Assembly (NCBI GenBank): GCA_035528115.1 | Contig: DATKZF010000003.1 | Coordinates: 227,795-291,794, forward strand | DNA: 64,000 bases | Direction: 5' to 3' | From: Candidatus Bipolaricaulota bacterium | GTDB lineage: Bacteria; Patescibacteriota; Patescibacteriia; UBA11705; DATKZF01 | Part shown: one piece after another, positions 5,980 to 57,109 of the stretch | How positions within the stretch are numbered: the stretch's first letter is position 1 | Layout of the letters: each line of letters begins with the position of its first letter | Program-made: the position numbers and the translations under genes | Notes under the pieces: generated by a model | Database searches by the model: none | What the model was told of the DNA's origin: nothing | What the model saw: only the letters and a program-made list of their open reading frames with translations

Positions 5980-5981
5980 AA

Positions 5982-32400: not shown

Positions 32401-32562
32401 CATAACCAATGCGTAAGGCACTTCCACCTCGGGGCTGGATTCTTGGGGTATTTGCAAAATCGATACGGTGCCTAAAATAATCACTCCGGCAATAATAATA
32501 TAAGTGAATTTATGATTATTCACGAAAAATTTCCAAATTTTTCCGATTTCTTTTTGCTCCAT
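29422..32562 (-). CDS. RND-family efflux transporter permease (AcrB-like)
   Basis: 1046 aa with a 12-TM architecture and two large periplasmic loops. Confidence 0.9.
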   Translation of the reverse strand: MEQKEIGKIWKFFVNNHKFTYIIIAGVIILGTVSILQIPQESSPEVEVPYALVMTPYPGASPEDVEELVTDPIEDKIKSLDELDIVTSESSSGLSFIFVQFDIDADVDQKVSALKEAVDEAKTQLPSDASDPSVRKLNFSDTPVLTFSLSGPFPINQLVEYAKSVQGQLESISGVSKVKISGGQDREISVIVDKVKLDGYGLPLSSVTSMIASANSDIPAGSIETSDTKYLVRFAGRLSSVEEISRVPIASIGDTVITVNDLAEVVDGYVEAASVSRLSLDGGQSQSAVSLSVYKVSGGNIVNIERQVMEILDQVKGDILPEGIEFEVTENMAQYVREDLSRLSANGLSTIIIIIVLLLIFLGWQEAILTGLAVPMTFLITFIFLYQFGYTINFLSLFSLILGLGMLVDCSIVVSEGINKYRNRGVPVKEAVYRTIEEFQWPLIAGTLTTVFAFLPMMFVGGIIGKFIESIPFTITVVLIGSFAVSLGFLTTISARVMKNKLPVPEINFLNSKFQKKITLGNLRERLLGPFYRWYQNKIESYMRSKAKRTAFIIVVLIAFVGAVALPVTGLLEVNMFPISDYELIYIDMKMPAGTPLTVTDRQALGVENILYEDNSVKSFLTVIGSQSSAGSFVSVDSNTSNQAYIIVKLKEEREKTSAQIADEYNEKFKSFTKLDITISLMDEGPPAGAPVEIKIIGPKLEVLESLAKEYEKMLNEIPGTKAVSSSVQESPGEFVITIDRLKAQLYGVSTMQIAATLRNAISGTSATVLREGGDDIDVVVKYDLDANGAGDKALDINAIESIDIATLSGGIPISSFTDSGIGYSRPSISHLDGDRIMTVTSDVKESASVQDIYDKITEKQAALVIPEGYIVSQGGETEDIQESFTDLLYAFVIGVVMIGSLLVLQFKSFRKVAFILVTIPLALIGVLPGLFLVNMPLSFPAAIGLVALAGVVVNNAIFLIDKITSNIAVGMSKPDAIADACMTRVRPILLTTITTVCGILPLAMSDSTWGPLGYSIVFGLSFSMVLTLMVVPILYLKFGRDKEDV

Positions 32563-32563
32563 A

Positions 32564-41889: not shown

Positions 41890-41930
41890 AAAACCCCTCC
41901 GGTTGGAGGGGTTCCGCTATGTTGAAAATT

Positions 41931-42344
41931 TTATTGTTGGGCTTTGAAATCCAAAATGGCGGTCACCACTTTGGAATCGTCTTGCAAGTCTTCGATAAAC
42001 AAAACATGGTCTTTGTTTATTTCCATTCTATCCATCGGTCCGTGCAGTTCATTTCCCAATTTAATCAAACTCAAATCAGGCGTTGTTTCGCTTCCCGCTT
42101 GTTGCTCTTGAAGCGGTTCTTTCAATTGCAAATAATAAATGTCTTTCAACAAGACATAACTCGCGTTTTTATTGGTTAATTTTCCGAAATATACCTGACC
42201 GTTTGTCAAAAAAACAGCTTGGTAATCCGATTTATTGAAGCCGCGCCGATAAATGAAAAAATATGCGGCCCCGGCGACAATAATCAAAATCATCAAGGCC
42301 AAAATCATGGCGAATTTTGAATTTGATCCTTCTTTTTGCGGCAT
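41931..42344 (-). CDS. Hypothetical small N-terminally anchored protein
   Basis: 137-aa ORF with one N-terminal TM helix, immediately downstream of the giant surface protein gene. Confidence 0.4.
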   Translation of the reverse strand: MPQKEGSNSKFAMILALMILIIVAGAAYFFIYRRGFNKSDYQAVFLTNGQVYFGKLTNKNASYVLLKDIYYLQLKEPLQEQQAGSETTPDLSLIKLGNELHGPMDRMEINKDHVLFIEDLQDDSKVVTAILDFKAQQ

Positions 42345-42410
42345 AAATATTTTTTATTTAATTTTCAATTATTAATATAATACAATAAAAAACACGCAAA
42401 TGCAAATGGG

Positions 42411-45400
42411 TTATTCACTTGGAGGTAAAGCCGGAGTCTGTTCGGCAGGCGCGGGTTCAACGGGCGTCGGCTCGATCGGCTCAGGTTCGACGGGAACGGG
42501 TTCGATCAGCGCTGGTTCTGCCGGAGTCGGCTCTGGCAAAACAGGTTCCTCGATTATTGGCTCGCTTGCCGGCTCAATGGGTTCCTCCGGCGCGTCAATA
42601 ATTTCTTCCGGAGCGATTGGCTCTTCTTCGGGAATAATGGGTTCATCCGGCGCAACGGGTTCAATATTGTTCTCCCCGAAAACCTGCTGAATTAAATCCG
42701 CGCCCAAAACTATCACCAAATCGCTGTTGCCGTAAAAACCGACTTCCCCGCTCATCAAATCAAACGGCACGACTTCTCCGCCCGTAATGCTTTGAATTTC
42801 CAGCAAAGCGTTTTGATCAATATTCAAATCGACCTGATAAATTTCAGTATTATCATAGCGCATGATCGGATCTTGACCTATATAAACGGTATAACCCAGC
42901 CCGCGCAAACTTTCCACGATATTTACGATATCCAAATTCGCTCCGTTAAGCAAAGTGATTTCAATCATTGACCGATCAATGGTCACTTCCGGTAAAACCG
43001 GCTCGCCGGCGTCCGCTTCGTTGCCCACGACTCCGAAAGCCAGCCAGGAAAAATTTATTGAGAAGGCGCAAACGCCATTATTATTGAACGTCTCTTCCGG
43101 CAAACAAAGCGGCTCGGCTATGTTTATGGTGAACCCTTCTTTGCTCTTGCCGGTAATGACGAATCTGCCGTCCCAGATGTCAAAAGCGTTGTCGGCCGCG
43201 GTCAAACCGTATAATTCCGGGGTCACGGAAATTCTGGGCAATTCTTCATAAGGCCTATCGAAATTGACCTTAACGAACGTCAGATCCGCCGAAGCGATGG
43301 TCGCGACTCCGGACATTTCGTCGCTGACATAAATTCTCTTTTCAGCGGTCAGATCTCCGGCCACGCTCAAACCGCCTTCGACTCGCAAGTCCGCCAAAAT
43401 CTTCATGTCCGTTTTCACTTCCAAATATTTGTCCGCTCCGTCAGGATAAACGACAGTCAAGACTTCGGCCAAGGAAGAATCGGTTAAATTAAGAGCCGCG
43501 TCCGGACCGATGATGGCCGAAATGGGATCGGAAACCAAATCTCCGGATCCTTCAAGCAAGGCCGCGGCCAAGGCGTTCGAGCCGTTATTTCTGGAAATTA
43601 AAACTTTGATGCTGTCAGACCCCGAGAACAAAGATTCCAACGCGATACCGATGGTCGGATCGCCGAGCGAAGCTTTCATGGCCACGCCGGGGATTGACGA
43701 GGTCGTCAAATAATCTCCTTGCCTGATGGCGCCGTTTTCGACATTGACTTTGGTGGGCAACTGTCCGATCAAACCGATCAATTTGTAATGTGTGTTGTTG
43801 TCGCCGTACCGATCGTTGCCGACAAATGCCGGGGACGTAGACACCACTCCCATGGCCAGCGCGTCCGACGAGGCAACGCAACGTTTCACCCCGTTGCTGT
43901 GTGCTCTGTCCACGCAAACTATTTCTCCGGGCACAAGATTAGAATCAATACTGAAGAAATATTCCGCATAGTCGGATCCGGTGGAAGCGTAAGTGACGCC
44001 ATCCGCGCCATTGCCGTGGATTTTTCCTCCTTCGGTGCCGTCGCCGTCCGCGAACTGCACCCATTTATTCGTGGCGCCAAAGCCCGCGTCTTCTCCGGCC
44101 TGAATCCAGACTCCCATATTGCCGGTGGTGCCGCCGTCATTGAATACTTTCAACGAATAATCCGAAGATTTGCTGTTGATCTCAGCGTCGCCGTTGATTC
44201 TAAAAAGCTGGTTGGCGATGGAACTCGCGAATTCCCCGTAAACCAAAGACAAAGTTTGATCTTGAAGTCTATTGGAGTTAGCAGAAGCTTTACTGCTTAT
44301 ATACAATTTATAAGAATCGGAAGTGGTGGTGGCGGAAGCTCCGGCATAAGATCCAATGGCCACATTATAAGTTCCAGTATCCAAATCATCCAAGGCGTAG
44401 TTTCCCAGCGCCACATTATATGAACCCGTGGTAAAATCATCCAGGGTCGACCTGCCTATACCGATATTATAATTGCCCCCGGCTGATGTTCCCGCTCCCG
44501 CCGCATTGTAACCGACGCCGATATTGTATGTTCCGGTGAGAATGTAATATCCGCTTTGAAAGCCAATCATGGTATTAGATCCTCCAGTCGCTCTATATAA
44601 CGAATCAGTACCAACCGCGGTGCTGTAACTGTTTGTTGAAATTGCTTGCAAAGAATTTCTGCCGACCGCTACATTCTCGTGGCCGCTAGTATTTGAATCA
44701 AGGGTGTTAGCGCCAACAGCAACACTGTCAAAACCACCTGCGGTGGCGGTCATTGAGTTAAACCCAATTGCCACGTTGTAATATGCCGTATCATCAGCGA
44801 CCGCCAAGGCGCTGCTTCCTATCGCCACATTATGATGAGCTAGAGAAGTTGCCACTGAACTCAAAGCGTTATTACCCATCGCCACATTATTGGCACCGAC
44901 ATTATTAGTCATGGCTCCGGAGCCTACCGCTACATTATAGTCTCCGGTATTAAGCATCAGGGCCTCATAACCAATGGCGGTATTATAACTGTTTGCGCTG
45001 ACCGCTGATAATGATGAATATCCAACTGCGGTATTGTATGATCCCGTATGGGAATTCATGGCATTATATCCCACCGCCGTGAGACCAGACTGGGTGTTCG
45101 CCGTCTGCAACACGCCCGGACCTATACCGACGTTATAATCGCCCGTGGTGAGAGCGGCCAGCGCTGACTCGCCGACAGAAATATTGTATGTGCCTCCGGC
45201 CTGAACCACCGCCAGAGCGCTCGGACCGACGGCCACCGAATTGTTGTCAAAATCAAGATAACCGCTGCCCACTGTCAATCTCTTCCCGGCGACATTAAAC
45301 CACAATTCAGCATCAGCGGTCGCGTTAGAGCCGATGACCAAATCATCATTGCTTGCGGTTAAATATGTAAAAGTTCCGGCATCGGTAAAAAGACCGGATC

Positions 45401-48400
45401 CTCCCGGCGCGGCGCCGGTCAGGCTCGCCCAAGTCGCGCCCGTGTAGCCTTCAAAATCCCCTCCCGTCCAGCGCAAATTACCGGCCGTGGTATCATCCGT
45501 ATTGCCTATTCTGATGCCGTCGCTGAAACCGACCACGGTGGCCGTCGCGTTGTCGATGATCGAACCGTTGCTGAGCTGAATGTCTCCGCTGGTAAAAGTC
45601 AGGCCGTTCATGTCAATTCCATAGCCCGCGCTGCCGCTGTCCGAAGCCAGACTGATATAACTGTCGATAAAAGCGTTTTTGGAAACGACTTGCAAACCGT
45701 ACGCTCCGTTGACTTCAGTTCCGGAAGCATCGACGATAATTTTACCGCCGTAAATGCTGTCCGCGGACGCGCCTCCCGAATTGGTCACGGACACATTGAA
45801 TCCATATAACTTTTGAGCGACCGCGCTTTGATTGGTTAAAGCGAAATTGTAACCGTACAAAGAACCGCTGAAACCCGCTTGTCCCAAGGCCGAACCGCCG
45901 TATCCGGTCGCATTTCCGCTGCCGGAATGATATAGAAGATTGTCAAAACCCGTTAAACTGCCCGCCCCGGAATGCGAAAGGATGTTCCATGAACCTCTTA
46001 CCGAACCGACACCGTCAAAGCCGCCTTGTCCGGTATCCGCAAAATCCCAAAAAGTGTAACCGACTATATCAGAAGTGGCGGTCGTGCCATCAACATTCAC
46101 ATTATTTGCGATGCGCAAAGTGCCGGCCTCATCAGCGGCATGGATTCCCAGCGTAATTTGCTGGCCCATTAAATTATTATATGCTCCCGTTAAAGCGGCC
46201 GATGAGCCCGCGTAAATATCTATCGCCTGAAGATTGTTGGTGTTGCCGCGGAAATTAACGTCCAAGGCGGCCGACGCGTGAGCGTCGCTTGAAGCGTCAA
46301 TGGCCAATTGCTGCGAACCGACCGTATTGTTGAATAAAAACGGAGCGTCAGCCGTGGCATTTGAACCGATAACCAAATCATCGCCGCTAGCCGTTAAATA
46401 TGTAAAAGTTCCGGCATCGGTAAAAAGACTTGATCCTCCCGGAGCGGCGCCGGTCAGGCTCTCCCAAGTCGCGCCCGTGTACCCTTCGAAATCCGCGCCC
46501 GTCCATCTAATATTGCCGGCCGTGGTATCGTCGGTATTGCCGATTCTGATGCCATCGCTGAAACCGGTTACGGTCGCGGTGGCATTGGAAATGATCGAAC
46601 CGTTGCTCAGCTCGATATCGCCACTGGCGAAAGTCAGTCCATTCATGGTCAAACCATAGCCGGCGCTGCCGCTGTCCGAGGTCAAACTGATATAATTTTC
46701 GATGTAAGCGTTTTTTGAAACTATCTGCAATCCGTAAGCGCCATTAACTTCGGCCCCGGACGCGTCAACCGTAATTTTTCCTCCATAGATGGAATCCGCT
46801 GACGCGCCTCCGGAATTGGTCACGGCAATATCCATGCCAAGCAAACTCTGCGCGGACGCGCTTTGATTGGTTAACGTAAGTTTGTAGCCGTACAATGACC
46901 CGCTGAATGAACCCGAACCATACACTTGCGGATTCACTCCATAAACGGTGCCGCTGCCCGAGCTGGTGGTGGAGCCGCCAAGGCCGGTTACCGAACCGCT
47001 ACCCGTATGCCACAAATAATTTTGAAAACCGGTCAGACTACCGCTGCCCGTATGGGAGATTAAAGAATACGCGCCGGTCGCCGAACCGACTCCGGACAAA
47101 CCATCTTGTCCGGTCTGAGAATTATCGAAAAAAGCGTAACCAATGATATCCGAAGTGGCGTTCGTGCCATCCACGTCGACATTATTCGCAATGCGAAAAG
47201 TGCCGGCCGTGTCCGCCGCGTTATAACCCAGCGTGACTGCTTGACCGAAAAGAAAAGCGCTGGCGCCCAAACCCGCTGATGACCCAGCGTAAATATCAAC
47301 GGCTTTAAGATTATCCGCGCTGCCGCGAAAATCAATATTCAAAGCTGATGTCGCGTTAGCGTCCGTGGAAGCATTAATTGCCAATTGACGCGAACCGCTG
47401 GTAGGGTCAAATAAAAACGGAGCGTCAGCCGTGGCGTTCGCGCCGAAAACCAATTGATCGGTCGAGGCCGTCAAATACGTGAACGAGCCGGCATCCGTAA
47501 ACAAACTGCCGCCCGGTCCGATGCCCGCGATGGCCGCGTCCAAATCTTCGATCACTCCTTGCACATTATTTTTCGTTGAATAAGTCAAACCATCGGAATA
47601 CACGCCGACATTATACGCGCCGCTGTCATCGGCGGCCGTAAATTCGCCCAAGGCGGTGGTGCCGATCACCAAGTCGCTGGACGCGGTCAAAGTCAGTTGA
47701 TTAACCACGGTTAAATTTTGTCCGAAATAGCCGTCATCTTCCACGTAAAGTCCGTAATCCCAAGCCGTGCCCGCCTGATAAATGGCGTATTCATTGCCGG
47801 CGCCGGCAGCGCCTTGCAAATCTTTGATATAAAGTCCGTACAAAGCGTCGCCGTCGGTCGCGTCTTGAGTGGCGGTCATTTGCAAAATCGACATGGTGTT
47901 GGCGCCGGAGTTCGTATTGGCCGTGAATTGCAAATTCAAAGCGTCGCCCGTCGTTCCCGAAACCGTATGTGAATATTTGCCCGTGACAATTTCGTCTTCA
48001 GCCAAAATGGCGAATCCGTCACCGTCCTGACCGTTTAATTTACCCGCGTTAATCGCGTAAGCCACGGCCGTGATTTCTTTTCGGGGCGACATCTCGCCAT
48101 CCCAAGACGCGGCGCCGGCTTTGCCGCCGACTTCCACGCTCAGCCAATAACCGGCTTCGGTCTGAAAATCGAGCGTGGCCGGAAAGGCCATCAAATCTCC
48201 GAGCTTCAATGAAAATAATCCCGAATCAACCGTCGCCAACGAAGTCGTGTCAGTCCAAGTCTCCGTCCAAAGCAAATCACCTGCGCTTTCGGCGTTGTAA
48301 ATTTTGAATCTGACATGATAATATCCGTCTTTGACTTCTTTGCCGTTGCTGTCAAAAAGCCTGGCTTGATAATTCAAATAATTGCTCACCGCGGCTTTGG

Positions 48401-48524
48401 TTTCCGGAGAATGCGTATTAAAAGCGTAAAAACCCATGGCCAAACAAACAATCAAAAATATCACCAGCTTGTACGGGCTCGCTTGATCGCGGGTCGAAAT
48501 AATTTTATCGAATTGTCTTTTCAC
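42411..48524 (-). CDS. Giant (2037-aa) N-terminally anchored cell-surface repeat protein. It has about 340-aa tandem domain repeats, tail-fibre-like NxAxGxxAL repeats and a Pro/Glu/Ile-rich C-terminal tail.
   Basis: Single long ORF with an N-terminal TM segment 'LVIFLIVCLAMGFYAF'. An about 340-aa unit occurs 2.5 times ('GGSLFTDAG(S/T)FTYLTAS...GDI(E/Q)LSNGSII(S/D)NATATV'). A block of 'YN(T/V)A(I/V)G..A(L/M)..NT.G' repeats follows. The C-terminus is 'EPIIPEEEPIAPEE...PVPVEPEPIEPTPVEP'. Confidence 0.8.
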   Translation of the reverse strand: MKRQFDKIISTRDQASPYKLVIFLIVCLAMGFYAFNTHSPETKAAVSNYLNYQARLFDSNGKEVKDGYYHVRFKIYNAESAGDLLWTETWTDTTSLATVDSGLFSLKLGDLMAFPATLDFQTEAGYWLSVEVGGKAGAASWDGEMSPRKEITAVAYAINAGKLNGQDGDGFAILAEDEIVTGKYSHTVSGTTGDALNLQFTANTNSGANTMSILQMTATQDATDGDALYGLYIKDLQGAAGAGNEYAIYQAGTAWDYGLYVEDDGYFGQNLTVVNQLTLTASSDLVIGTTALGEFTAADDSGAYNVGVYSDGLTYSTKNNVQGVIEDLDAAIAGIGPGGSLFTDAGSFTYLTASTDQLVFGANATADAPFLFDPTSGSRQLAINASTDANATSALNIDFRGSADNLKAVDIYAGSSAGLGASAFLFGQAVTLGYNAADTAGTFRIANNVDVDGTNATSDIIGYAFFDNSQTGQDGLSGVGSATGAYSLISHTGSGSLTGFQNYLWHTGSGSVTGLGGSTTSSGSGTVYGVNPQVYGSGSFSGSLYGYKLTLTNQSASAQSLLGMDIAVTNSGGASADSIYGGKITVDASGAEVNGAYGLQIVSKNAYIENYISLTSDSGSAGYGLTMNGLTFASGDIELSNGSIISNATATVTGFSDGIRIGNTDDTTAGNIRWTGADFEGYTGATWESLTGAAPGGSSLFTDAGTFTYLTASGDDLVIGSNATADAPFLFNNTVGSQQLAIDASSDAHASAALDVNFRGNTNNLQAIDIYAGSSAALTGAYNNLMGQQITLGIHAADEAGTLRIANNVNVDGTTATSDIVGYTFWDFADTGQGGFDGVGSVRGSWNILSHSGAGSLTGFDNLLYHSGSGNATGYGGSALGQAGFSGSLYGYNFALTNQSAVAQKLYGFNVSVTNSGGASADSIYGGKIIVDASGTEVNGAYGLQVVSKNAFIDSYISLASDSGSAGYGIDMNGLTFTSGDIQLSNGSIIDNATATVVGFSDGIRIGNTDDTTAGNLRWTGGDFEGYTGATWASLTGAAPGGSGLFTDAGTFTYLTASNDDLVIGSNATADAELWFNVAGKRLTVGSGYLDFDNNSVAVGPSALAVVQAGGTYNISVGESALAALTTGDYNVGIGPGVLQTANTQSGLTAVGYNAMNSHTGSYNTAVGYSSLSAVSANSYNTAIGYEALMLNTGDYNVAVGSGAMTNNVGANNVAMGNNALSSVATSLAHHNVAIGSSALAVADDTAYYNVAIGFNSMTATAGGFDSVAVGANTLDSNTSGHENVAVGRNSLQAISTNSYSTAVGTDSLYRATGGSNTMIGFQSGYYILTGTYNIGVGYNAAGAGTSAGGNYNIGIGRSTLDDFTTGSYNVALGNYALDDLDTGTYNVAIGSYAGASATTTSDSYKLYISSKASANSNRLQDQTLSLVYGEFASSIANQLFRINGDAEINSKSSDYSLKVFNDGGTTGNMGVWIQAGEDAGFGATNKWVQFADGDGTEGGKIHGNGADGVTYASTGSDYAEYFFSIDSNLVPGEIVCVDRAHSNGVKRCVASSDALAMGVVSTSPAFVGNDRYGDNNTHYKLIGLIGQLPTKVNVENGAIRQGDYLTTSSIPGVAMKASLGDPTIGIALESLFSGSDSIKVLISRNNGSNALAAALLEGSGDLVSDPISAIIGPDAALNLTDSSLAEVLTVVYPDGADKYLEVKTDMKILADLRVEGGLSVAGDLTAEKRIYVSDEMSGVATIASADLTFVKVNFDRPYEELPRISVTPELYGLTAADNAFDIWDGRFVITGKSKEGFTINIAEPLCLPEETFNNNGVCAFSINFSWLAFGVVGNEADAGEPVLPEVTIDRSMIEITLLNGANLDIVNIVESLRGLGYTVYIGQDPIMRYDNTEIYQVDLNIDQNALLEIQSITGGEVVPFDLMSGEVGFYGNSDLVIVLGADLIQQVFGENNIEPVAPDEPIIPEEEPIAPEEIIDAPEEPIEPASEPIIEEPVLPEPTPAEPALIEPVPVEPEPIEPTPVEPAPAEQTPALPPSE
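45480..47510 (-). repeat. Intragenic tandem repeat (about 1.0-kb unit, two full copies plus a partial one) inside the giant surface protein gene
   Basis: Near-identical long protein segments recur with about 340-aa periodicity. Coordinates are approximate and derived from residue positions. Confidence 0.6.
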
Positions 48525-48527
48525 AGA

Positions 48528-49517
48528 CTACTTTTTTTCAACTTCTTCTTTTATTTCGTTTTTCTTTTGAGCCATTTTAATGATCGCCTTGTTGTAGCTT
48601 CTGAGCATCAGGTATAAAATCGCCAAGATCGCCAAACCGACCAACATCAAATGCCATGGAATAATCCAAAATTTCAAATTGCCGATGATTTTCTCATCAG
48701 GATCATCCTGCCAAGCCATTTCCAAATGAGCGGTGTATCTGCCAAAGCCGAAATTATGCCATTCGTTTTTCAATTCCTGAACGAAACTGCCCCGTTCTTC
48801 CGGACCTCGCCAAATCGGGTGAAACGCCCTGATGCTGTTCGGTAAAATATTGCCTTTTTTCGGATTGGCGGCAATCAACGCGGACGCGCCGATCCAGCCT
48901 GAAACCGAAATATCGCCGATCGGCTTGAAATGAACATTGCCCGAATTTTTGATTCTGATCAAAAATTCCACGGGCGGGCGATTAAAAACCTTTTTTCCGC
49001 TGGCCAAGGAAAACTCCACCAAATCCGCTCCCTGCCTGATATTGCCGGGCACCGTGACCAAAGTCAGCACACCCGTGTTCTCTCCCAAGCCCACGCCGCC
49101 GCTCTGCTCGGAACCCGGAGGTTCAGTGCTGGTGAACAAGGCCGCGTAATGTCCTCCCGGCTCGGCGTCGCTCGGCACTTTTATTTTAAAATTGATTTCT
49201 TTGGTCTCGCCGACCATAACCAGCATAAAAGGAAATTCGAATTCAACCCAGCTGGCCAAACCCATTTGACTGTCTTCTTCGGAAGCCAAACCGGCATCGC
49301 CTTCTTCGCCCCTGGCGTCGAAATTTCTGGCCATGAAATAATATATGCGCGGCGAATCCGTTTCATTTCTGATGCGATATGATCCTTCATAAACTTTGCC
49401 AGGCTCGACCACAATACCTTCAAGCACCGGTGGCATTACGGTCACGGCAAAACTCTCGCCGACAAAACCGAAAAATAATATTGAAACAAGTCCTAAAATA
49501 ATGAAAGTTTTTTTCAT
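48528..49517 (-). CDS. Cell-surface protein with a signal peptide, an Ig-like secreted domain, a C-terminal TM anchor and a Lys-rich tail (DUF916/DUF3324-like architecture)
   Basis: 329 aa. Signal peptide 'MKKTFIILGLVSILFFGFVGESFA'. A C-terminal TM 'WHLMLVGLAILAILYLML' is followed by a KK-rich cytoplasmic tail. The pattern of beta-strand motifs resembles WxL-locus DUF916 proteins. Confidence 0.5.
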   Translation of the reverse strand: MKKTFIILGLVSILFFGFVGESFAVTVMPPVLEGIVVEPGKVYEGSYRIRNETDSPRIYYFMARNFDARGEEGDAGLASEEDSQMGLASWVEFEFPFMLVMVGETKEINFKIKVPSDAEPGGHYAALFTSTEPPGSEQSGGVGLGENTGVLTLVTVPGNIRQGADLVEFSLASGKKVFNRPPVEFLIRIKNSGNVHFKPIGDISVSGWIGASALIAANPKKGNILPNSIRAFHPIWRGPEERGSFVQELKNEWHNFGFGRYTAHLEMAWQDDPDEKIIGNLKFWIIPWHLMLVGLAILAILYLMLRSYNKAIIKMAQKKNEIKEEVEKK

Positions 49518-49538
49518 AAAATGCGGAATTGGGAAATA

Positions 49539-50651
49539 TTAAAAACTGGCGGTCACGTAATATGTCATTGTTTGCGTGTAAGTGCCGGAACTGGTGCCGT
49601 CGTCGATTTTGGCGCGATGCTGAATCAACGCGGTATTGGTCAGATCCGTTGAAATCGGAGAATTCACGCCCGCGCAATCATACAAATCTTCCACAGTGCT
49701 GCCGTCAACGGGCATGGGAGAATCGTCATCCGTGTAATTGCCCAATTCCGTAGCCGCGGTGCCGCCGCTATAACTGCAGCTGCCCGCGGTCACGGCGATG
49801 CCATAGGCTTCGGCGCTGCTGTTGGTTATCGCGCCCGCGCCTTCAGTCACCAAATCAATGTCCAACCCGTCGGCCACGGCGCCCGAACCGGACGTGCGCA
49901 AGTCGCCGTCACTCGTTATCTTAACCGTGTAACCTCCGCTGGCCGTGGAATAAACTTTCAAACGGTATTCGCAAGTGGCCACCGTGTTTAACCCCAGCAA
50001 ACCCAAACCGCAGGCGTTGGTATATCCCGTGTCAGTCGTGTTTCTTATTTCAAATCTTAAAATTGTTTCCACTGAAGCCGTCACAGTCACGTCATTTTCA
50101 TCTCCGGAGTAAAGCAACACTGCGCCGAATTCACTATTGACGCTGGAAGCGGTTAAATAAACGGCATCCATTTGATCCGGAGCGACGGCGGGCGCGGTCA
50201 AGGTCAGACAAAATTCCACGCCGTTGCTTGAGGACGTGGTGGTCGATCCGGAAAAAGTATATGTCGCAATCAGACCTATCGAGGTCCAAGCGCCGTCCGG
50301 AGTGATGTCTCCATCAATATCCGTGGTGTTGCCGCTGACGCAAGCGGTGTCGAGGCTCCAACCGGCAGGCAATTCTAGAGAAATGGTGTCATCCGAAGCG
50401 AACTCTCCCTCAGCGACAAAAGAGAAGAAAACTTCATCGGTCGCGCTCTCCGCGATGTTCGGCCAGGCGCCATGCGAGGCGGGCAGAGCGGGCGTAATCG
50501 TGCCGCCGCCATTGTAATTGGCGTCTTCATTGAGATCGGCGTATAAAATTACGCCGTTATCGGCCTGGGCGTCGATCGGAACCAAGGCGACCGAGAAAGT
50601 CGCCGTGAAAATAATTATGAAGATGAGGGACGAGATGCTTTTTCTATACAT
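49539..50651 (-). CDS. Secreted protein, paralog A of a pair with a conserved C-terminal motif ('YTQTMTYYVTASF')
   Basis: 370 aa with a signal peptide. It shares 'SGGYTVKITSDGDLR' and the C-terminal 'T.T.YY...F' with the next gene. It contains 'AGWSLD' (W-x-L). Confidence 0.5.
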   Translation of the reverse strand: MYRKSISSLIFIIIFTATFSVALVPIDAQADNGVILYADLNEDANYNGGGTITPALPASHGAWPNIAESATDEVFFSFVAEGEFASDDTISLELPAGWSLDTACVSGNTTDIDGDITPDGAWTSIGLIATYTFSGSTTTSSSNGVEFCLTLTAPAVAPDQMDAVYLTASSVNSEFGAVLLYSGDENDVTVTASVETILRFEIRNTTDTGYTNACGLGLLGLNTVATCEYRLKVYSTASGGYTVKITSDGDLRTSGSGAVADGLDIDLVTEGAGAITNSSAEAYGIAVTAGSCSYSGGTAATELGNYTDDDSPMPVDGSTVEDLYDCAGVNSPISTDLTNTALIQHRAKIDDGTSSGTYTQTMTYYVTASF

Positions 50652-50687
50652 ACATATTTTATTTATATTTTATATATTTTATTTTTT

Positions 50688-51653
50688 TCAAAAACCGGCC
50701 ACGCAATAATAGCTGGTGGTATGAGTGTAAACTCCTCCGGCCATTTCCGCTGAATCGATTGACGCTTTGTAAATCACGGCCACGCGAGCGTTATCTTGCT
50801 TGTCAGTGGAAACGGCCACGTCCTGAGCGGTCGAGCTGATCGGCCAATCACCTGACCCGACGGCTTGATCGCCCGTGGTGGAGATGCCGTATTCCGTGCT
50901 GCCGATGCTGACCGTGCCGTCGCTGACATCCACGGTCACATACGGTCCTTCGCCCAATCTCAAATCATGATCTTCGGTAATGTAAACGGTGTAACCGGAC
51001 TCCGCATTGGTATCGACTTCGGCCATGGCCACGCCCGTGGCCACCGTCGCGTCGGTCAATTGTCCGAGCGACAACATCTGTCTATCCAACAAATACACGG
51101 CGTCGTCTCCGCCGGCCGGACTCGCGCTCATGGTCGCTTGATCGCCTGACCATTTATCAACCGTAAAGTCATTGCCAATCACCGAAACGATTTCGCCTAT
51201 GGCCACTTTTTGCCCTTGACCTTCATTTTCAACCACGGCGATAAAGTCGCCGCTGGCAAAACCGATTGCCGAAGAAACCGTCACCGAAAAAGCGGCCAAG
51301 TCAAAAGCGGAATAATCCACCCGACTGCCGTCGTTTTGCGCGTTGACTCGAAATTGCAATTTGGGTTTTTCCGCCTGTCTGTATCCGGCGTTCACCGACC
51401 AATTGCTGCTGGCGCTCTGGCCCGAGCTCAATTGCCCCAAGGTGTCTATGGCTTGATAATTGGTCGAAGACGAATTGTCCGTGCCGCCCGAATTCAGAGA
51501 ATCCCAATCAATAATGTAATTCGAGCTGGTCATGGCAAACACAATCTCCTTGCCGCCGAAAATTTGGCAAGTCAAAAGCGTCAATAAAATCGCGATCGTA
51601 AATTTAACATTTTTTAAAACCATAAAAACCGGAAGTATTTCCTCAATATTCAA
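50688..51653 (-). CDS. Secreted protein, paralog B ('SGYTVYITEDHDLR ... YTHTTSYYCVAGF')
   Basis: 321 aa with a signal peptide. Same conserved internal and C-terminal motifs as paralog A. Confidence 0.5.
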   Translation of the reverse strand: MNIEEILPVFMVLKNVKFTIAILLTLLTCQIFGGKEIVFAMTSSNYIIDWDSLNSGGTDNSSSTNYQAIDTLGQLSSGQSASSNWSVNAGYRQAEKPKLQFRVNAQNDGSRVDYSAFDLAAFSVTVSSAIGFASGDFIAVVENEGQGQKVAIGEIVSVIGNDFTVDKWSGDQATMSASPAGGDDAVYLLDRQMLSLGQLTDATVATGVAMAEVDTNAESGYTVYITEDHDLRLGEGPYVTVDVSDGTVSIGSTEYGISTTGDQAVGSGDWPISSTAQDVAVSTDKQDNARVAVIYKASIDSAEMAGGVYTHTTSYYCVAGF

Positions 51654-52030
51654 AATGAAACCTCATACACTGAAATGGGCTTAAAAATTTAAATTTCTTC
51701 GACTTTTTCTCCCGGAGAAAAAAGAATTCTCCATATAAAATTATACCACAAAACATTGAAATAAATCTGACTTTATTGTGAAAATGTGGATAAAAAAAAG
51801 AAAGCGCGCTCGCTTTCATGGCTTTGTTTCAAATTCATTGGCAAAATCAAACCATTTTCCCAGCTGTTTTGCCGATATTTCTTTTATAATCCGCTGATTT
51901 TCTCCTTGACGGCGTGCGGTATCGGGTCAATTTTTTATTTGTTTTTTTCGAATAATTTTTCATAATGACAAACTTCCCCCCTAGTCCAAACCGATGCTGT
52001 CATCTCGACCGTAGTACCGCCCCGTTCGTC

Positions 52031-52070
52031 ATTCCCGCGAAAGCCTGCCTGCCGGCAGGCAGGCGGGAAT
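52031..52070. repeat. Extended palindrome 'attcccgcgaaagcctgcctgccggcaggcaggcgggaat' (family member)
   Basis: Seen directly. Intergenic, upstream of femAB. Confidence 0.7.
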
Positions 52071-52221
52071 CCACAAAACAGCGACAATGGCATAGGCGGT
52101 GCGTTTAATGAAAAAGATTCTTCCATTCCAGCTTGCTCCGAGCGACCCCGAGTGGGAGTCGAGGGGGCGAAATGACAAACACTATTTAACGCGCAAAATC
52201 TTGCTGATCTTTTATCTGGTA

Positions 52222-53310
52222 CTATCTCGCACGCAAAATCTTGTACATCTTGTACCCCAAATCCCACACCTTCAAAACAACCGGCCTGAAAATAAGCTGA
52301 TAGCACCCCAAATACTCAAAAATCGGCCGGCTCGGGTCAAAACCTTGTTTGAATCTGGTAATACCCTGCCAGGACTTTTCCTTTTTCACTTTGGAATCAG
52401 CGGGCGCGGCTCCCCAAAAATCATAAATTTCAAAGCCTTCTTTTTTCGCGTCGCAAATAGCGCGCCACTGTAAAAGGTGCGGGGCCATGACATTGCGATA
52501 TTTATCCGAAGAGGCGCCGAAAAGGTAGGTGGCCACGTTTTTATAATAAACGCACAAAATCCCGGCCACAACTTTGTTTTCAAATTTCGCCAAATACAAT
52601 TTCGAAAAATCGAATTTTAAAATATCCTCGAAATATTTCAGCGGGTACGCGCCGAATTTTTGCCGAGCCGTTGTTTGTTTCAATAATTCAAAGAACGTGG
52701 CCGCGTCTTTTGACTCCTCGACCTTCACTCCCTTTTTCTCAGCCAGCCTGATATTATATCTGGTTTTCTGGCTCATTTTCGCCAGCAATTCGTCTTCAGA
52801 CTGTGAAATATCGAGCATGATGGTGTGGGCCGGCTGGACTTCGTCATTTGATTTTTTCAAACCCAGATTCTCAAAAGCTTTTTTCCAAACATTTTTTTCA
52901 TCAATGGCCAAGCTCGACCACTTTTCTTTTTCCGGCAAATTTCCGGCGTCAATTATCACATTGGGATCGATTCGAAAAAGCAATGATTTGTTTTCTTTGG
53001 CAATCGCACGGACTTTTTCAAATAATAATTTCAAAACCTGCTCGAGCTTTTGCTCGTCATTTAAAATTTCATCGCAAACGACCGGGCCTCTGGGGCAATA
53101 CAAGCCGTTTTGTCCGATCAAAAACCGATGTTTCCAAAAAAACATTTGCGCCAAGATTTTCTCGCCGTCTTTTACCTCCAATCGCCAGATTTTTTGCTGG
53201 CGGCCGGACTGAAATTCGCCCCATTCAAAAGATTGTAAAAGAGAGCCGGTTTTTTGGGCGGCGTTGAAGGAAGAATAGGGGGTTTGAATTTGAGATTGTT
53301 CGACAATCAT
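52222..53310 (-). CDS. FemAB-family peptidoglycan interpeptide-bridge aminoacyltransferase
   Basis: 362 aa. Family-typical motifs ('YNIRLAEKKG', 'GAYPLKYF', 'APHLLQWRAI'). Confidence 0.75.
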   Translation of the reverse strand: MIVEQSQIQTPYSSFNAAQKTGSLLQSFEWGEFQSGRQQKIWRLEVKDGEKILAQMFFWKHRFLIGQNGLYCPRGPVVCDEILNDEQKLEQVLKLLFEKVRAIAKENKSLLFRIDPNVIIDAGNLPEKEKWSSLAIDEKNVWKKAFENLGLKKSNDEVQPAHTIMLDISQSEDELLAKMSQKTRYNIRLAEKKGVKVEESKDAATFFELLKQTTARQKFGAYPLKYFEDILKFDFSKLYLAKFENKVVAGILCVYYKNVATYLFGASSDKYRNVMAPHLLQWRAICDAKKEGFEIYDFWGAAPADSKVKKEKSWQGITRFKQGFDPSRPIFEYLGCYQLIFRPVVLKVWDLGYKMYKILRAR

Positions 53311-53346: not shown

Positions 53347-54192
53347 TCAATGACGAGGATTTTTGTTTTTCAATTGCCGCTCATTACTGCCATTAATGAC
53401 GCTCTTTCCGGTTTTGCTTTCAATGTCCTTTCTGGCATTACCGGCCACGCTTCCGCCATCTCTTGCCACGATTTTATTTTCATCCATATTTTTCGGCTGA
53501 CGTTTTTGGGAAATTTCGGTCGTGGCGGTTTCGGCAAGCATATTCAAAACCAGCTCAAGATTCGTCATATTATCGCGTAAATTTTCCTTTTTCAAATTTT
53601 TCAACCGCTTGTATTCTTTGGTGGTCAATCCTGCCCAAGCCTTGATTATCTCATCGGTGAGAATGGCAAATTCCAATCCATCTTTCACGCCGCGCTTTTC
53701 CCATTCATCGGTCAACGCTTTTCTTATTTCAATACTTTTTAAGCGTTGATTGATCCATTCCTGACTGTACCCCTTTTGCCAATAAGTCTTTAGCGCGCGG
53801 TCTATCGCCAATTCCGGATCAGCGGTCTCCTCCAGCCGTTCATATCCCACGCGCGCCAGCCAAAGTTTAAATGGTTCGGCATTGGGAGAAGGGATGGACT
53901 GGATAAGACGAAGCATGGTTTCGGTATCAGCCGCGTCAGTAAGACGCATTTTGCCGTCCGGGGCAATCATTTTCAAAGCGTTACATTTTGTAACGGTTTC
54001 ATTTGAACCTTCATCAATCAATCGTTTTTTCAGCACGCGCCAATAAACCTGCGGATTATCACTCTTTGTAAGAACCGCTATTACATCAGCTACCGAGAAA
54101 TACCAGATTTCCTTTTCTCCGTCCCAATGACGGCGAATTTGATTTCCTTCAAAAATCGCTATTGTTTTGTTTTTTGATTCCTTTTTTGCCAT
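53347..54192 (-). CDS. DinD-like DNA-damage-inducible protein with a Bro-N/KilAC-like N-terminal domain
   Basis: 281 aa. 'IAIFEGNQIRRHWDGEKEIWYFSVADVIAVLT' is Bro-N-like. The overall layout resembles E. coli DinD. Confidence 0.6.
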   Translation of the reverse strand: MAKKESKNKTIAIFEGNQIRRHWDGEKEIWYFSVADVIAVLTKSDNPQVYWRVLKKRLIDEGSNETVTKCNALKMIAPDGKMRLTDAADTETMLRLIQSIPSPNAEPFKLWLARVGYERLEETADPELAIDRALKTYWQKGYSQEWINQRLKSIEIRKALTDEWEKRGVKDGLEFAILTDEIIKAWAGLTTKEYKRLKNLKKENLRDNMTNLELVLNMLAETATTEISQKRQPKNMDENKIVARDGGSVAGNARKDIESKTGKSVINGSNERQLKNKNPRH

Positions 54193-54218
54193 GATATTTA
54201 CAAATTTATTTCAAAAAC

Positions 54219-54395
54219 TTATTTTTCTTTCCGGCTAAAAATTTTCTCTCCGTCTTTTACCTCCAACCGCCGGATTTTTTGCTGGCGGGTTTTTTGGAAT
54301 TCGGACCAATTCAAGGATTGCAAAAGAGAGGAGGTTTTTGGGGAAAGGGCAAAATTTTGCCAGGAGGTTTGATCAGAAAATTCTTCGATTCTCAT
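54219..54395 (-). pseudogene. Diverged duplicate of the femAB 5' end (N-terminal 55 codons), a remnant
   Basis: Nucleotides 54225-54400 are about 80% identical to 53160-53310. It translates to 'MRIEEFSDQTSWQNFALSPKTSSLLQSLNWSEFQKTRQQKIRRLEVKDGEKIF', against femAB 'MIVEQSQIQTPYSSFNAAQKTGSLLQSFEWGEFQSGRQQKIWRLEVKDGEKIL'. It then terminates. Confidence 0.55.
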
Positions 54396-54407
54396 TATAT
54401 TAAAAAA

Positions 54408-54920
54408 TTATTCTTTAAATATTAAATATTTTTTAAAAAGTTCTCTTGATTCGTCAAATTGTTTTTGAAACCAAGTCAACAAATCATAACTTTCTTGAGC
54501 CAACCCTGTTCTTTTATCTCCAATAGGTAACCTTGCATCATTCAATAATCTGCTCACCATTGCTAAACGTATCGCCTTTCCTCTTAGAGTGTCAATATAA
54601 TTGGGAATCTCTTTATCAAATAGAAATTCTCTTTCATTTGTATCTGCGATAAATTGATTTAGGACTTTAGGGTTAACTGTCGCATTAATCATGGCATCAC
54701 GCAATAAAGCAGTGATTGCCTTATATATCGTGTATCTTCTGTCATATAGATTTAATTTAAATTGATCAGATCTTGTTCTGTGTTCTTGATATGCGATATA
54801 CGCTACAAAAATAGCAATCATGGGGGTCAATAGGCCTGATAGTATTACTATCAATCTAACATATTCGATCATCTCCGTTATTTTATGAATTATTGACACG
54901 GTAAACATAACGACAAACAT
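54408..54920 (-). CDS. Hypothetical single-pass membrane protein, downstream partner of the Rx4HG (HEPN-like) gene
   Basis: 170 aa with an N-terminal TM 'VRLIVILSGLLTPMIAIFVAYIAY' and a cytoplasmic helical domain. A 2-nt gap to the upstream gene suggests an operon. Confidence 0.45.
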   Translation of the reverse strand: MFVVMFTVSIIHKITEMIEYVRLIVILSGLLTPMIAIFVAYIAYQEHRTRSDQFKLNLYDRRYTIYKAITALLRDAMINATVNPKVLNQFIADTNEREFLFDKEIPNYIDTLRGKAIRLAMVSRLLNDARLPIGDKRTGLAQESYDLLTWFQKQFDESRELFKKYLIFKE

Positions 54921-54922
54921 AC

Positions 54923-56065
54923 TTAACTGTAAAAAAATAATTGATCAAGAATCAAAATCAACTGTAAAGCACGTTGCTTTGTATATTGTTGTGGTTCCGC
55001 AACTCCGTGGCCCGCTGAATTGCGCGACATACCAATATTTCCAGCCTCGACATTAAAGGTTGCAAAGACAACATCCTTTAAGTATGTTAAAAATGGCAGA
55101 GGAAATAACAATGAATGATCTGAACCAGTTTTATTTTTCGCCTTTTCGACAATGTGTTTGGATAACTCGTATGATTTTATTCCAACGCCTTTCCCCGTAT
55201 CTACAAAATAAAGTATTCTCAATACTCCTTCAATCTCAGACCACAATGTTTTTATGCAAGTCACAAATCCATCCGGATTATTTTGCATATAAGCATTAAC
55301 ACCAGCCCCAATCAAAGCCTTTTTTTCTGAAAAAATTTTGTTTTGCCACCACTTTTCTGTTATTTTCTTTATGCGACTTGAATCAAAACTATCTACAATA
55401 ATTTTAATTCTGTTTTCAAAATCAAATCTGTTTTGATAGACTTCAGTCAATTGCTTGTAAGCAATGGCAATAATCTCTATAAAAGGGAACCAACCATCTT
55501 TCCTCATATCAGCGAACTGAGCCCCCGCCTCCAGGGTTTTATAAACATGATAAAAAGAAAGATATCTATACAATCCGCCTATAGATAATTCCATTTTCTC
55601 CATATCTAATTGTTGGTGATCTCCCGTGTGGAAATCAACCGCAGTAAAATCAAAAAATAATCCAAATCGCCATCCAACTTTAAAACAATAAATTACACTG
55701 TCATTTGAAACAATACTTATATCACCAAACTTTATTTTTCTGATGTCTGCGACGTCGGCATCGGTTATGGCCTCTCCAACCTTTACATCTCTCTTTGCCT
55801 TAATTTCAACTAATACTTTAAAATCATTCACATATAGATCCGCGCTCAAATCATCATGTATAACAATGAGGAACTGGCATACTGAATCTTCCAGAACACC
55901 TGCTCGGGATAGAAACAAGTTTGATATTTGATCCATGTATTTGTAAAAAACCGGCTCGTCTGACGTTAACTTAGCGCGTATTAAAATTTCTGCCACCTCG
56001 CCGTCTTTTACATTCTTGGTAGAAAAGCCAGCAAGATTATCGACTTTATCAAAGTAAAATTTCAT
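54923..56065 (-). CDS. Hypothetical protein with a C-terminal Rx4HG (HEPN-like) motif. Candidate RNase toxin / abortive-infection effector.
   Basis: 380 aa. 'NIGMSRNSAGHGVAEP' carries R-x4-H-G near the C-terminus (compare 'RNxxAHG' of many HEPN nucleases). No other family recognised. GC is lower than the background. Confidence 0.4.
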   Translation of the reverse strand: MKFYFDKVDNLAGFSTKNVKDGEVAEILIRAKLTSDEPVFYKYMDQISNLFLSRAGVLEDSVCQFLIVIHDDLSADLYVNDFKVLVEIKAKRDVKVGEAITDADVADIRKIKFGDISIVSNDSVIYCFKVGWRFGLFFDFTAVDFHTGDHQQLDMEKMELSIGGLYRYLSFYHVYKTLEAGAQFADMRKDGWFPFIEIIAIAYKQLTEVYQNRFDFENRIKIIVDSFDSSRIKKITEKWWQNKIFSEKKALIGAGVNAYMQNNPDGFVTCIKTLWSEIEGVLRILYFVDTGKGVGIKSYELSKHIVEKAKNKTGSDHSLLFPLPFLTYLKDVVFATFNVEAGNIGMSRNSAGHGVAEPQQYTKQRALQLILILDQLFFYS

Positions 56066-56141
56066 ATTAATTTAATGTCTCAAAAATCTTCTTTACTAAT
56101 TTCGTCCTCGCGTAAAAAGCGCGCGTTATCGGTCGCCTTTA

Positions 56142-56333
56142 CTAAACCCACCACGCCTGAAACTCCGGATACGTCAGGGAATCGTAAAAATCCAAATATT
56201 TATCATCCTCCCAAACCAGCTCCGTGAAATTCTTCAGATCTTCATTATATCCGCGGCACATGACTTTCAAGCGCGCCAGCGGATTGAATCTTAACATGAT
56301 TTTAGCGGAAGTGGGAGAGATATTGATTTCCAT
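56142..56333 (-). CDS. Hypothetical small protein (63 aa)
   Basis: ORF between the DpnI-like gene and the Rx4HG gene. No recognisable motif. Confidence 0.3.
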   Translation of the reverse strand: MEINISPTSAKIMLRFNPLARLKVMCRGYNEDLKNFTELVWEDDKYLDFYDSLTYPEFQAWWV

Positions 56334-56338
56334 ATTTT

Positions 56339-57109
56339 TTAATTGAGTTTGTATTTCCCTCTGCCCAAAAACTTCAAATACCCGCCATCGCGCAAAAACT
56401 GCAACTGCTGGCGGATTTTGTCTTTGATATGCTTATTTTCTGGATGCAAAAGGCTTAATTCTTTTTCAAAAGCATACATTTCATCGAGCGAAAATTCTTT
56501 TTTCCCGACTTGATCAACGCAGCACATGACGTCAAGCGTCCAGCCTTTGGCTGATATTTCTTTTTCTTCTCGCAAAAACAAAGTTTTCTTCCAGTCGTCC
56601 AGCACCTTTTTCTTCGGCGCAATTCGCTTATCTCGGACGAAAAATATTTTGCCGGTTTGAGGAATGCTTTTTAGAATGATATTGCAGCCCACCCAGCCGG
56701 CGCGGCGAGCGGATGGAGGAAGCGGCTTTCGTTTCTCGATCATTTCAGGCACGAAAAAATGTTTGGGGATCACGATAAAATTTATTACCTGCAAGCTCTT
56801 CAAATTATAATTTAGAAAAAAGAAATTGGGATTGGCGCTGCTTTTCAGACGATCCAACATGGTCTTATACGCTCCGTCGACTATTTTCAAACCCATGGAA
56901 TCTCTTTTACTTTTCAATTCATAATCTTCCAGGCAATTGGCGCAATAAAAATCGGCTGCCGGCCGATTATTCGGATATTTATCGATTTCAACGCGGCCGC
57001 AATTCGGACAAAAGATGGAATGATCAACCCAATTTTCCGTCAAAACGCGCGCTTTTTGCGAAGCGCTTTTATAATTTGTAGCTAACTTTTTATCAAAAAA
57101 TAATTTCAT
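56339..57109 (-). CDS. DpnI-like methyl-directed restriction endonuclease (Dam-replacing protein family)
   Basis: 256 aa. 'YKSASQKARVLTENWV...FCPNCG...NRPAADFYCANC...YELKSKRD' matches the DpnI/DRP catalytic domain pattern. A C-terminal winged-helix-like region ends 'FLGRGKYKLN'. Confidence 0.6.
   Translation of the reverse strand: MKLFFDKKLATNYKSASQKARVLTENWVDHSIFCPNCGRVEIDKYPNNRPAADFYCANCLEDYELKSKRDSMGLKIVDGAYKTMLDRLKSSANPNFFFLNYNLKSLQVINFIVIPKHFFVPEMIEKRKPLPPSARRAGWVGCNIILKSIPQTGKIFFVRDKRIAPKKKVLDDWKKTLFLREEKEISAKGWTLDVMCCVDQVGKKEFSLDEMYAFEKELSLLHPENKHIKDKIRQQLQFLRDGGYLKFLGRGKYKLN

Follow-up and report, generated by a model that had tools for sequence, protein, structure and literature searches.

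A probable minimal, divergent Pam-type pilus operon with a dedicated adhesive-fibre gene in a genome of the candidate phyla radiation

Attachment to a host cell is a central, poorly understood step in the life of bacteria of the candidate phyla radiation (CPR), whose cells are generally described as having no outer membrane. In this work, we analyse a cluster of five genes, called A to E, on the minus strand at positions 41931-51653 of a 64,000-nucleotide stretch of DNA (the window), part of a contig of 762,837 bp deposited under the NCBI source label 'Candidatus Bipolaricaulota bacterium' (locus tags VMX18_03335/40/45). Using a comparison of sequences, predicted structures and related loci, we conclude that the cluster is likely a minimal, divergent Pam-type CPR pilus operon that includes a dedicated MAT-like or tail-spike-like adhesive fibre.

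The closest described system is the Pam pilus, identified only in 2026 and in one cultured species of Saccharimonadia, Candidatus Mycosynbacter amalyticus (Troman et al., bioRxiv 10.64898/2026.03.03.709456; NCBIfam NF058578/79/81). According to that preprint, the pilins PamA and PamB consist of an N-terminal beta-sandwich, a donor-strand linker and a truncated immunoglobulin (Ig)-like C-terminal domain; the linker and its binding site are conserved, the cysteines are paired, and the founding members of the system are filaments seen by cryo-electron microscopy (cryo-EM). PamT is a single-domain tip pilin without a linker, PamR is an RbmA-like anchor, and PamC and PamD are PapD/FimC-like chaperones that, unusually, carry a C-terminal transmembrane (TM) helix. 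A tail-fibre-like protein is central to the conserved pam neighbourhood. The system is stated to be exclusive to the CPR, with emphasis on Saccharimonadia and Microgenomatia, and WxL and DUF916 go unmentioned (Troman et al., 10.64898/2026.03.03.709456).

Two further systems bear on the comparison. The Lactobacillales have clusters of WxL and WxLIP (Csc) surface proteins (Hassan et al. 2023, PMC10599100; PDB 9i25, 9i1y), whose WxL proteins are reported to form complexes bound to peptidoglycan and not filaments (PMC10599100). The MAT fibres of Bdellovibrio are trimeric and phage-tail-like (Caulton et al. 2024, PMC10769870). Their beta-rich domain, which is conserved and ~130 amino acids (aa) long, directly follows the signal peptide and is believed to attach to a predator-surface element that has yet to be identified, with variable C-terminal tips that bind prey (PMC10769870).

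All five genes of the cluster are co-directional, and each product begins with a hydrophobic segment. A sequence-only reading of this DNA had proposed a run of co-directional genes for exported or anchored proteins only, forming a dedicated surface locus of a CPR-type genome; the open reading frames (ORFs) and their hydrophobic segments bear out the first part, and the exported products together with the co-conservation described below support the second. The genes, in the order of the operon, are:

50688-51623, minus strand: gene A, 311 aa from the NCBI start at Met11, with an alternative TTG start at 51653 (50688-51653)
49539-50651, minus strand: gene B, 370 aa, Pam-type two-domain shaft pilin
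48528-49517, minus strand: gene C, 329 aa, two-Ig chaperone, membrane-anchored
42411-48524, minus strand: gene D, 2037 aa, GTG start, fibre
41931-42344, minus strand: gene E, 137 aa, N-terminal TM segment

For comparison, one genome per species was scanned with a degenerate DNA pattern for the C motif AEPGGHYAA, which gave 114 loci (L numbers below); such a scan selects for the motif, and the 8-kb blocks that it returned often cut the operon. C-family and pilin genes within these loci were called with hidden Markov models (HMMs) built from our own alignments.

Genes A and B encode the pilin-type proteins. NF058579 (CPR_pilus_PamT), an equivalog model with a curated cut-off of 240 bits, matches A with 55.8 bits (E-value 4.3e-15) over the PamT N-terminus only, and NF058581 (CPR_Pam_pilin_C), with a cut-off of 55 bits, matches both A (26.1 bits, E-value 7.3e-6) and B (23.4 bits, E-value 5e-5). 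Homology to the Pam pilins is supported transitively, because a jackhmmer search started from the C-terminal domain of B reaches ORFs above the NF058581 cut-off (L053, 161 bits; L117, 175 bits). These two and a third ORF (L056, 58 bits) are the three cases in which a pilin ORF adjoining a C-family gene exceeds the Pam cut-off. The C-terminal ~150 residues of A and B align as paralogs (BLASTP, 32% identity, E-value 6e-7), and the two shared motifs from which paralogy had first been proposed both fall inside this alignment. Pfam gave no significant match for any of A, B, C, D and E, and neither PDB sequence searches started from A, B, C or D nor one with a profile of 91 pilin C-terminal domains returned a match.

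In A, a signal peptide leads into a PamT-type N-terminus that contains three 'S-x-N-Y' strands, and the protein ends in a Pam pilin C-terminal domain. When A is aligned to a bona fide PamT (312 bits), the N-terminus and the C-terminal domain both match, with a ~100-aa insertion between them; this inserted domain (~residues 85-190) is kept in A's own clade and is not in bona fide PamT. A thus appears to be a tip pilin of the PamT kind into which a further domain is inserted, itself a candidate adhesin for which the tip subunit would be a natural spot. The A-like gene is the first of the operon in 13 related loci.

B begins with a signal peptide, followed by an N-terminal beta-sandwich (~65-182), a linker (181-194) and an Ig-like C-terminal domain (198-370). 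The linker, 'GDENDVTVTASV' (YSGDENDVTVTASV), is a candidate donor strand and, together with C-terminal-domain strands (336-353), makes up the most conserved windows of the protein; its six cysteines form three pairs. The AlphaFold2 model of B (predicted local distance difference test, pLDDT, 73) consists of two beta domains joined by a linker that is modelled with low confidence at 186-194, and its pLDDT is moderate because the alignment is shallow; homologue searches for the pilin saturated on low-complexity words and returned only 9-10 proteins. Fold searches with this model gave generic tandem-Ig matches only. Of the WxL-like and pilin-like folds for which the sequence-only reading had proposed to test the paralogs, the second applies: they are pilin-like beta-sandwich proteins, and no WxL domain was found in them.

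The family of the pilin C-terminal domain holds ~200-aa single-domain proteins as well as proteins of 650-1,180 aa that end in the domain. Giants of this kind are encoded at L039:4464-8000, L002:2-3292 and L092:3011-5647, and further ones at L060:5567-7648, L012:1-2241 and L107; they may be adhesins built into the pilus.

Gene C encodes the chaperone. Its AlphaFold2 model (pLDDT 93.4) shows a signal helix, two beta-sandwich domains (25-130 and 148-285) and a long C-terminal helix; the C-terminal hydrophobic segment spans residues 282-308, the TM helix is modelled at 288-328, and the protein ends in a Lys-rich cytoplasmic tail. The top Foldseek match is 9i25_C, the WxLIP of E. faecium, accompanied by 9i1y, RbmA and the chaperone-usher chaperones CfaA, CsuC, Caf1M, DraB, EcpB and CupB2; the Foldseek probability is 1.0 for WxLIP, CfaA, CsuC and Caf1M. 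For C, 170 homologues can be detected; among those with a named source, nearly all come from metagenome-assembled genomes (MAGs) of Patescibacteria. Although C itself has no direct Pfam match, PF06030 matches 29 of 62 C-family members, the family profile finds EfmWxLIP1 in the PDB (E-value 5e-4), and the C HMM scores plasmid-borne Firmicute WxLIPs with up to 42 bits. By hhalign, the C family aligns to seven Firmicute WxLIPs at 98.8% probability (E-value 1e-16) across 226 columns spanning both Ig domains. The original description of the 329-aa protein as DUF916/DUF3324-like therefore holds at the level of the family, and these alignments make a solid case for homology between the chaperone and WxLIP. 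This link was found neither in the Pam preprint nor in the literature surveyed on this question.

That C corresponds to the Pam chaperones follows from the Saccharimonadales locus L117, a bona fide pam locus, in which the order PamT (312 bits, cut-off 240), Pam pilin and P0112 is the order A-B-C. P0112 is a member of the C family (E-value 1.5e-31 to C), and L117 has a separate PamR-like gene (247 bits); C is accordingly read as a PamC/D-type chaperone and not as PamR. An identification of C with PamR was considered and rejected on the same separation and on the lack of any NF058578 match in C.

The kinship with WxLIP also underlies the main rival explanation, a non-filamentous WxL-type complex in which C would tether A, B and possibly D as monomers to the membrane or wall, and no pilus would form. 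C is homologous to WxLIP over DUF916 and DUF3324 alike and has the same C-terminal TM helix, and one strand from the first domain is predicted to enter its client. Loci on Firmicute plasmids run in the same order, with a small secreted WxL protein, WxLIP and a giant surface protein in the places of A/B, C and D, and the small single-domain and large domain-ending proteins of the pilin family have their counterparts in the small and large WxL proteins. The pilin C-terminal domain, however, could not be identified with the WxL domain in any of three tests: Pfam WxL (PF13731, the dual Trp-x-Leu motif) has no match in A, B or the 91 pilin C-terminal domains; the HMM of the pilin domain gives E-values >= 0.2 against 9 WxL proteins; and hhalign returns a 3% probability, with only the last hairpin aligned. 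What A and B do share with WxL proteins is a short C-terminal resemblance, 'Y-x-x-T-x-T-Y/W' (P 0.015), and D ends in neither a WxL nor a pilin domain. Moreover, A and B match Pam pilin models whose founders are filaments seen by cryo-EM, and B retains the conserved linker that mediates polymerisation of PamA and PamB. For these last two reasons we regard the WxL-type complex as unlikely, and a pilus as the better reading of the locus.

The plasmid WxL loci of Lactococcus and Enterococcus (L121, L122, L124) have a fixed order of small WxL protein, WxLIP and giant, the giant being a WxL or BspA-LRR protein of 922-1,507 aa; a small LPXTG protein is often present. In some of their WxL C-termini the second Trp is replaced by Tyr or Phe ('TITYNL', 'NITFDL'), near the pilin motif 'T-x-T-Y'.

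Resemblance to the chaperone-usher systems (Pap/Fim, CFA/I, Csu, Caf1) lies in the two-Ig chaperone fold, in donor-strand complementation and exchange, which we propose for this locus as well, and in a tip subunit encoded with the shaft subunits. The locus differs from them in that there is no usher or outer membrane here (no gene for an outer-membrane usher was found in or beside the cluster), the chaperone C is membrane-anchored, and the pilins of the locus are two-domain proteins whose putative donor strand lies in an internal linker rather than in an N-terminal extension. These systems have no sequence similarity to the locus.

The related loci show that the genes travel together. A C-family gene is present in 102 of the 114 loci, the other 12 being chance matches in unrelated genomes. 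A gene for the pilin C-terminal domain lies in the same 8-kb block in 92 of the 102, a pairing of chaperone and pilin that speaks for the locus on co-conservation, the point at which the sequence-only reading had held itself open to refutation. A same-strand pilin gene lies within 400 bp of 112 of 159 C-family genes, and two or three C-family copies occur in 39 of the 102 loci. Homologues of E, which has no family match in Pfam or NCBIfam, are found directly upstream of a pilin gene and two chaperone genes in six loci, and E is on this ground assigned to the Pam-like system.

In the recurrent order, the A-like, B-like and C genes are followed by what is usually a 1,100-1,200-aa protein and then by a D-like giant. 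The intervening protein has a signal peptide, two fn3/Pur_ac_phosph_N domains, SdrD_B, CarboxypepD_reg and two to three C-terminal TM segments, and may serve as a large anchor of the PamR kind; neither the window nor its two nearest relatives have it. Examples are L042:2515-6111, L110:4595-7930 and L078:1532-5143, with equivalents in L007, L072, L091, L109, L068, L001 and L035. In the closest relative, L115 (C 63% identical), IleRS and FemAB precede an A-like gene, a B-like gene, C and a gene for a 4,978-aa giant, which is 57% identical to D in the N-terminal module, 67% in the 350-aa repeat unit and 52% in the YN-repeat region.

C-family genes also occur in MAGs labelled Thermoleophilia, Gaiellales or Actinomycetes, with a guanine-plus-cytosine (GC) content of 0.50-0.66 (Actinomycetota-labelled loci L006, L061, L096, L114, L013 and L098; also L004, L050, L085 and L087). 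Several of these proteins bear a ~150-aa C-terminal extension beyond the second hydrophobic segment, and the adjoining genes encode ~180-200-aa pilin C-terminal-domain proteins ending '...SGSYAANLTVTATTL'. If the binning of these MAGs is right, the system is not exclusive to the CPR, contrary to the Pam preprint.

Gene D, the fibre, is by far the largest of the five, and four regions can be recognised in its product:

48000-48407, minus strand: conserved N-terminal beta-rich module, residues ~40-175 (NF053851 match)
45396-47504, minus strand: two full ~350-aa tandem repeats, residues 341-1043 (70% identical)
44325-45272, minus strand: tail-spike-like YNxAxG beta-helix repeats, residues ~1085-1400 (PHROG match and motif spacing)
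42414-42674, minus strand: Pro/Glu-rich C-terminal tail, residues 1951-2037 (no anchor signal)

The two full repeat units (341-699 and 700-1043) share 70% identity and are followed by a partial third copy (1045-1082). At least 11 [YHF][NSD]x[AMG]xG motifs, mostly ~17 residues apart, lie within residues 1130-1390, and this block matches the tail-spike family phrog_4636 (E-value 2.8e-38) as well as phrog_6002 and phrog_23837; Pro and Glu make up 30% and 26% of the last 87 residues. The 2.5 repeats, the YN repeats and the Pro/Glu-rich stalk of the giant protein had thus been read correctly from the sequence, and its anchoring probably had not. Members of the D family have a hydrophobic N-terminus and then, 5-10 residues ahead of a conserved 'INYQG' strand, a signal-peptidase motif of the AxA type, the consensus after the cleavage motif being 'INYQG(R/K)L...G..V.DG.Y...F.IY....GG..LWT'. 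Since the AxA motif is family-wide and there is no C-terminal anchor, D is more likely secreted than anchored, and we take it as probably secreted.

The N-terminal module of D matches NF053851, the model of the N-terminal domain of Bdellovibrio MAT fibres, with 25.5 bits (E-value 9.4e-6, residues 43-110). Twelve of 14 D-family members match the same model (best E-value 1.3e-9), all under its 60-bit cut-off. No Pfam model covers the module, and this Bdellovibrio-specific NCBIfam model alone reaches it. Searched exhaustively, D(1-340) yields 9,480 cluster representatives with E-values <= 1e-3 and 1,843 with <= 1e-10; among the 150 best matches the module is nearly always N-terminal, most often in proteins of 800-5,900 aa. 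A protein with the module is also encoded in L117, the bona fide pam locus (E-value 1e-43). In D-family members from other pam-like loci the module is kept and LVIVD propeller repeats replace the tail-spike repeats. From the MAT match of the module and the counterpart in L117, we equate D with the 'tail-fibre-like protein' of pam neighbourhoods; one of its ends would be conserved and serve for docking, the other variable and serve for binding.

D thus resembles MAT fibres in its signal peptide followed by a conserved beta-rich N-terminal domain of ~130-150 aa, in a long repetitive, tail-spike-like shaft, in distal modules that vary across the family (tail-spike repeats or LVIVD propellers) and in belonging to an organism that lives on other bacteria. 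It differs in that its match lies under the curated cut-off (25 versus 60 bits), in the lack of a Peptidase_S74 domain detectable with Pfam, in its much larger size with 350-aa tandem repeats and a Pro/Glu tail, and in the placement of its gene within a pilus operon, a setting not reported for MAT genes.

The breadth of the D family invites a second explanation, namely that these are independent adhesin genes brought together by chance, with D a stand-alone fibre unrelated to A, B and C. The D module occurs in ~9,500 protein clusters, too many for all to be linked to pam; MAT fibres of Bdellovibrio function without Pam pili; and a protein of ~1,150 aa separates C from the D-like gene in many related loci. 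Against chance, D starts 4 nt after the stop codon of C, D-family genes lie 3' of C in at least 15 loci as well as in the bona fide pam locus L117, C and D are directly adjacent in the two closest relatives, and the Pam preprint independently reports co-localisation of a tail-fibre gene. We find a chance assembly improbable, and continue to treat D as part of the pilus operon.

More improbable still, to the point of being very hard to sustain, is a degraded prophage or tail-fibre cassette, in which D would be a phage tail spike and the Bro-N and DpnI-like genes upstream its companions. The PHROG tail-spike and virion-protein matches of D speak for it, as do the Bro-N and DpnI genes and the low-GC stretch at 53-57 kb. 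However, no further gene for a phage structural protein was found, D carries a probable Sec signal peptide and an N-terminal module of cellular type, A, B, C and E have no PHROG matches, and the housekeeping synteny is kept in a relative: IleRS (61655-63997) and FemAB (52222-53310) lie upstream of the cluster in the window, and likewise in L115 (IleRS 1-230, FemAB 5796-6887). This common context argues for a stable chromosomal setting and not a mobile element. A prophage remnant was rejected on these grounds.

With these alternatives weighed, the comparison with the Pam system can be drawn together. The likeness extends to a Sec-exported two-domain pilin with a conserved linker, an Ig-like C-terminal domain and paired cysteines (B), a PamT-like first subunit (A), a two-Ig, PapD-like chaperone with a C-terminal TM helix (C), the absence of an usher or ATPase, a co-localised tail-fibre-like gene and the PamT-pilin-chaperone order of L117. 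The suggestion that the combination had not been described as a unit does not stand, because pilins, a TM-anchored chaperone and a tail-fibre-like gene make up the pam operon, known from the 2026 preprint (Troman et al. 2026) and its curated HMMs. Nevertheless, the locus differs from that system. It has one shaft pilin (B) in place of PamA, PamB and PamE; its PamT homologue bears the ~100-aa inserted domain; its fibre gene starts directly behind the chaperone stop codon; the window ORFs scanned include no corB or MFS neighbours; and its nearest relatives carry the labels Uhrbacteria/Patescibacteria, not Saccharimonadia/Microgenomatia.

Further differences weigh against assigning the locus to the Pam system. 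The HMM scores of A and B are far under the curated cut-offs (23-26 versus 55 bits, and 56 versus 240 bits). There is one chaperone where Pam has PamC and PamD, and no second C-family chaperone was found in the 64-kb window. PamR is missing, in that a phmmer search with the PamR-like protein of L117 found none in the window and C itself does not match the PamR model; nor was a PamE homologue found in the window. The ORFs scanned, which were not every ORF of the window, included no ATP synthase. No filament has been seen for this lineage, and a contact between D and the pilus, which we infer, drew no support from the tests made here. On balance, the sequence comparison presents the locus as a distinct, minimal and divergent variant of the known Pam system.

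The homologies, domain architectures, gene order and co-conservation suggest how such a machine may operate. All five products would be exported by Sec, and C would be held in the membrane by its C-terminal helix, its Ig domains donating a strand that caps the presumably incomplete C-terminal Ig domain of newly exported pilins. The PamT-like A would initiate the filament and end at its distal tip. B would then polymerise by donor-strand exchange, in which the linker (181-194) of an incoming B displaces the chaperone strand in the C-terminal domain of the preceding subunit, a process that should need no usher or ATPase. The base subunit would most likely be held by C, as WxLIP holds WxL proteins in Firmicutes; we propose C as the membrane anchor because no PamR is encoded in the locus. 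D would be a separately secreted fibre, probably trimeric, whose conserved N-terminal module docks to a conserved partner on the cell surface and whose variable distal repeats bind the host cell. We expect E to be a small membrane accessory protein.

As to the organism, the homologues with a named source are nearly all from Patescibacteria, as is the closest, syntenic relative, and in the window S5 (5982-6581) abuts L15 (5494-5979) with no L30 gene between them. Such a direct succession of S5 and L15 without L30 is a trait typical of the CPR. For these reasons, the Bipolaricaulota label is probably a mislabel. Family members are also found in MAGs labelled Paceibacteria, Berkelbacteria and Gracilibacteria. 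Because curated HMMs at their cut-offs miss these forms, the Pam system is much more widespread than annotation shows.

The locus represents a stripped-down form with a tip pilin, a shaft pilin, one chaperone, a fibre and a small accessory protein, and this minimal form defines the indispensable parts and suggests that a chaperone can double as membrane anchor. The homology between chaperone and WxLIP ties a CPR pilus to a long-puzzling Firmicute surface system and predicts strand donation there as well, and the tight genetic coupling of a MAT-like fibre to pilus genes offers a testable candidate for how such a fibre is mounted on the cell. More speculatively, and as a possibility that we hold only tentatively, Pam pili, Firmicute WxL/WxLIP and the Actinomycetota loci may be branches of one ancient, usher-less, single-membrane assembly system with a two-Ig, membrane-anchored, strand-donating chaperone at its core, the N-terminal module of the CPR fibre docking on the pilus or the chaperone. 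If so, the kind of surface partner used by the MAT fibres of Bdellovibrio would be identified, and the operon would be a complete host-capture device, with reach provided by the pilus and specificity by the fibre.

The edges of the operon are marked by short elements in the flanking DNA:

51800-51817, minus strand: terminator-like hairpin GAAAGCG-AGCG-CGCTTTC then T8 (scan and sequence reading)
51740-51748, minus strand: extended -10-like element TGGTATAAT, ~90 nt upstream of A (read directly)
41894-41911, minus strand: terminator-like hairpin CCCCTCC-AACC-GGAGGGG then TTTT, between E and ComEC (read directly)

The operon is apparently bracketed by hairpins at both ends, of which the first would close the FemAB unit upstream of A in the manner of a terminator; the other is unlisted in the terminator scan because its T-run is short. 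TGGTATAAT is a candidate operon promoter that has no -35 match and for that reason is unlisted in the promoter scan.

In the FemAB-A intergenic region (~52020-52080, minus strand), a palindromic, GC-rich element, 'TTCCCGCCTGCCTGCCGGCAGGCAGGCTTTCGCGGGAATGACG', has the look of a short interspersed repeat; it reads '...FRGNDE...' in a spurious ORF, and Rfam gave no RNA family at this position. Just upstream of FemAB, 53347-57109 (minus strand) encodes a Bro-N domain protein, two family-less ORFs and a DpnI-like restriction enzyme, and may be a small mobile or defence island; the lowest GC content of the window, 0.35, falls within it at 54-56 kb. Candidates for ATP synthase at 59-64 kb were rejected, as they proved to be a protein of no identified family and IleRS. 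Farther away (29422-34426, minus strand) lie genes for an AcrB-type RND transporter (1046 aa, 622 bits) and an HlyD-like membrane-fusion protein (620 aa), a pair in the style of a tripartite pump, although the genome otherwise looks like that of a single-membrane CPR bacterium.

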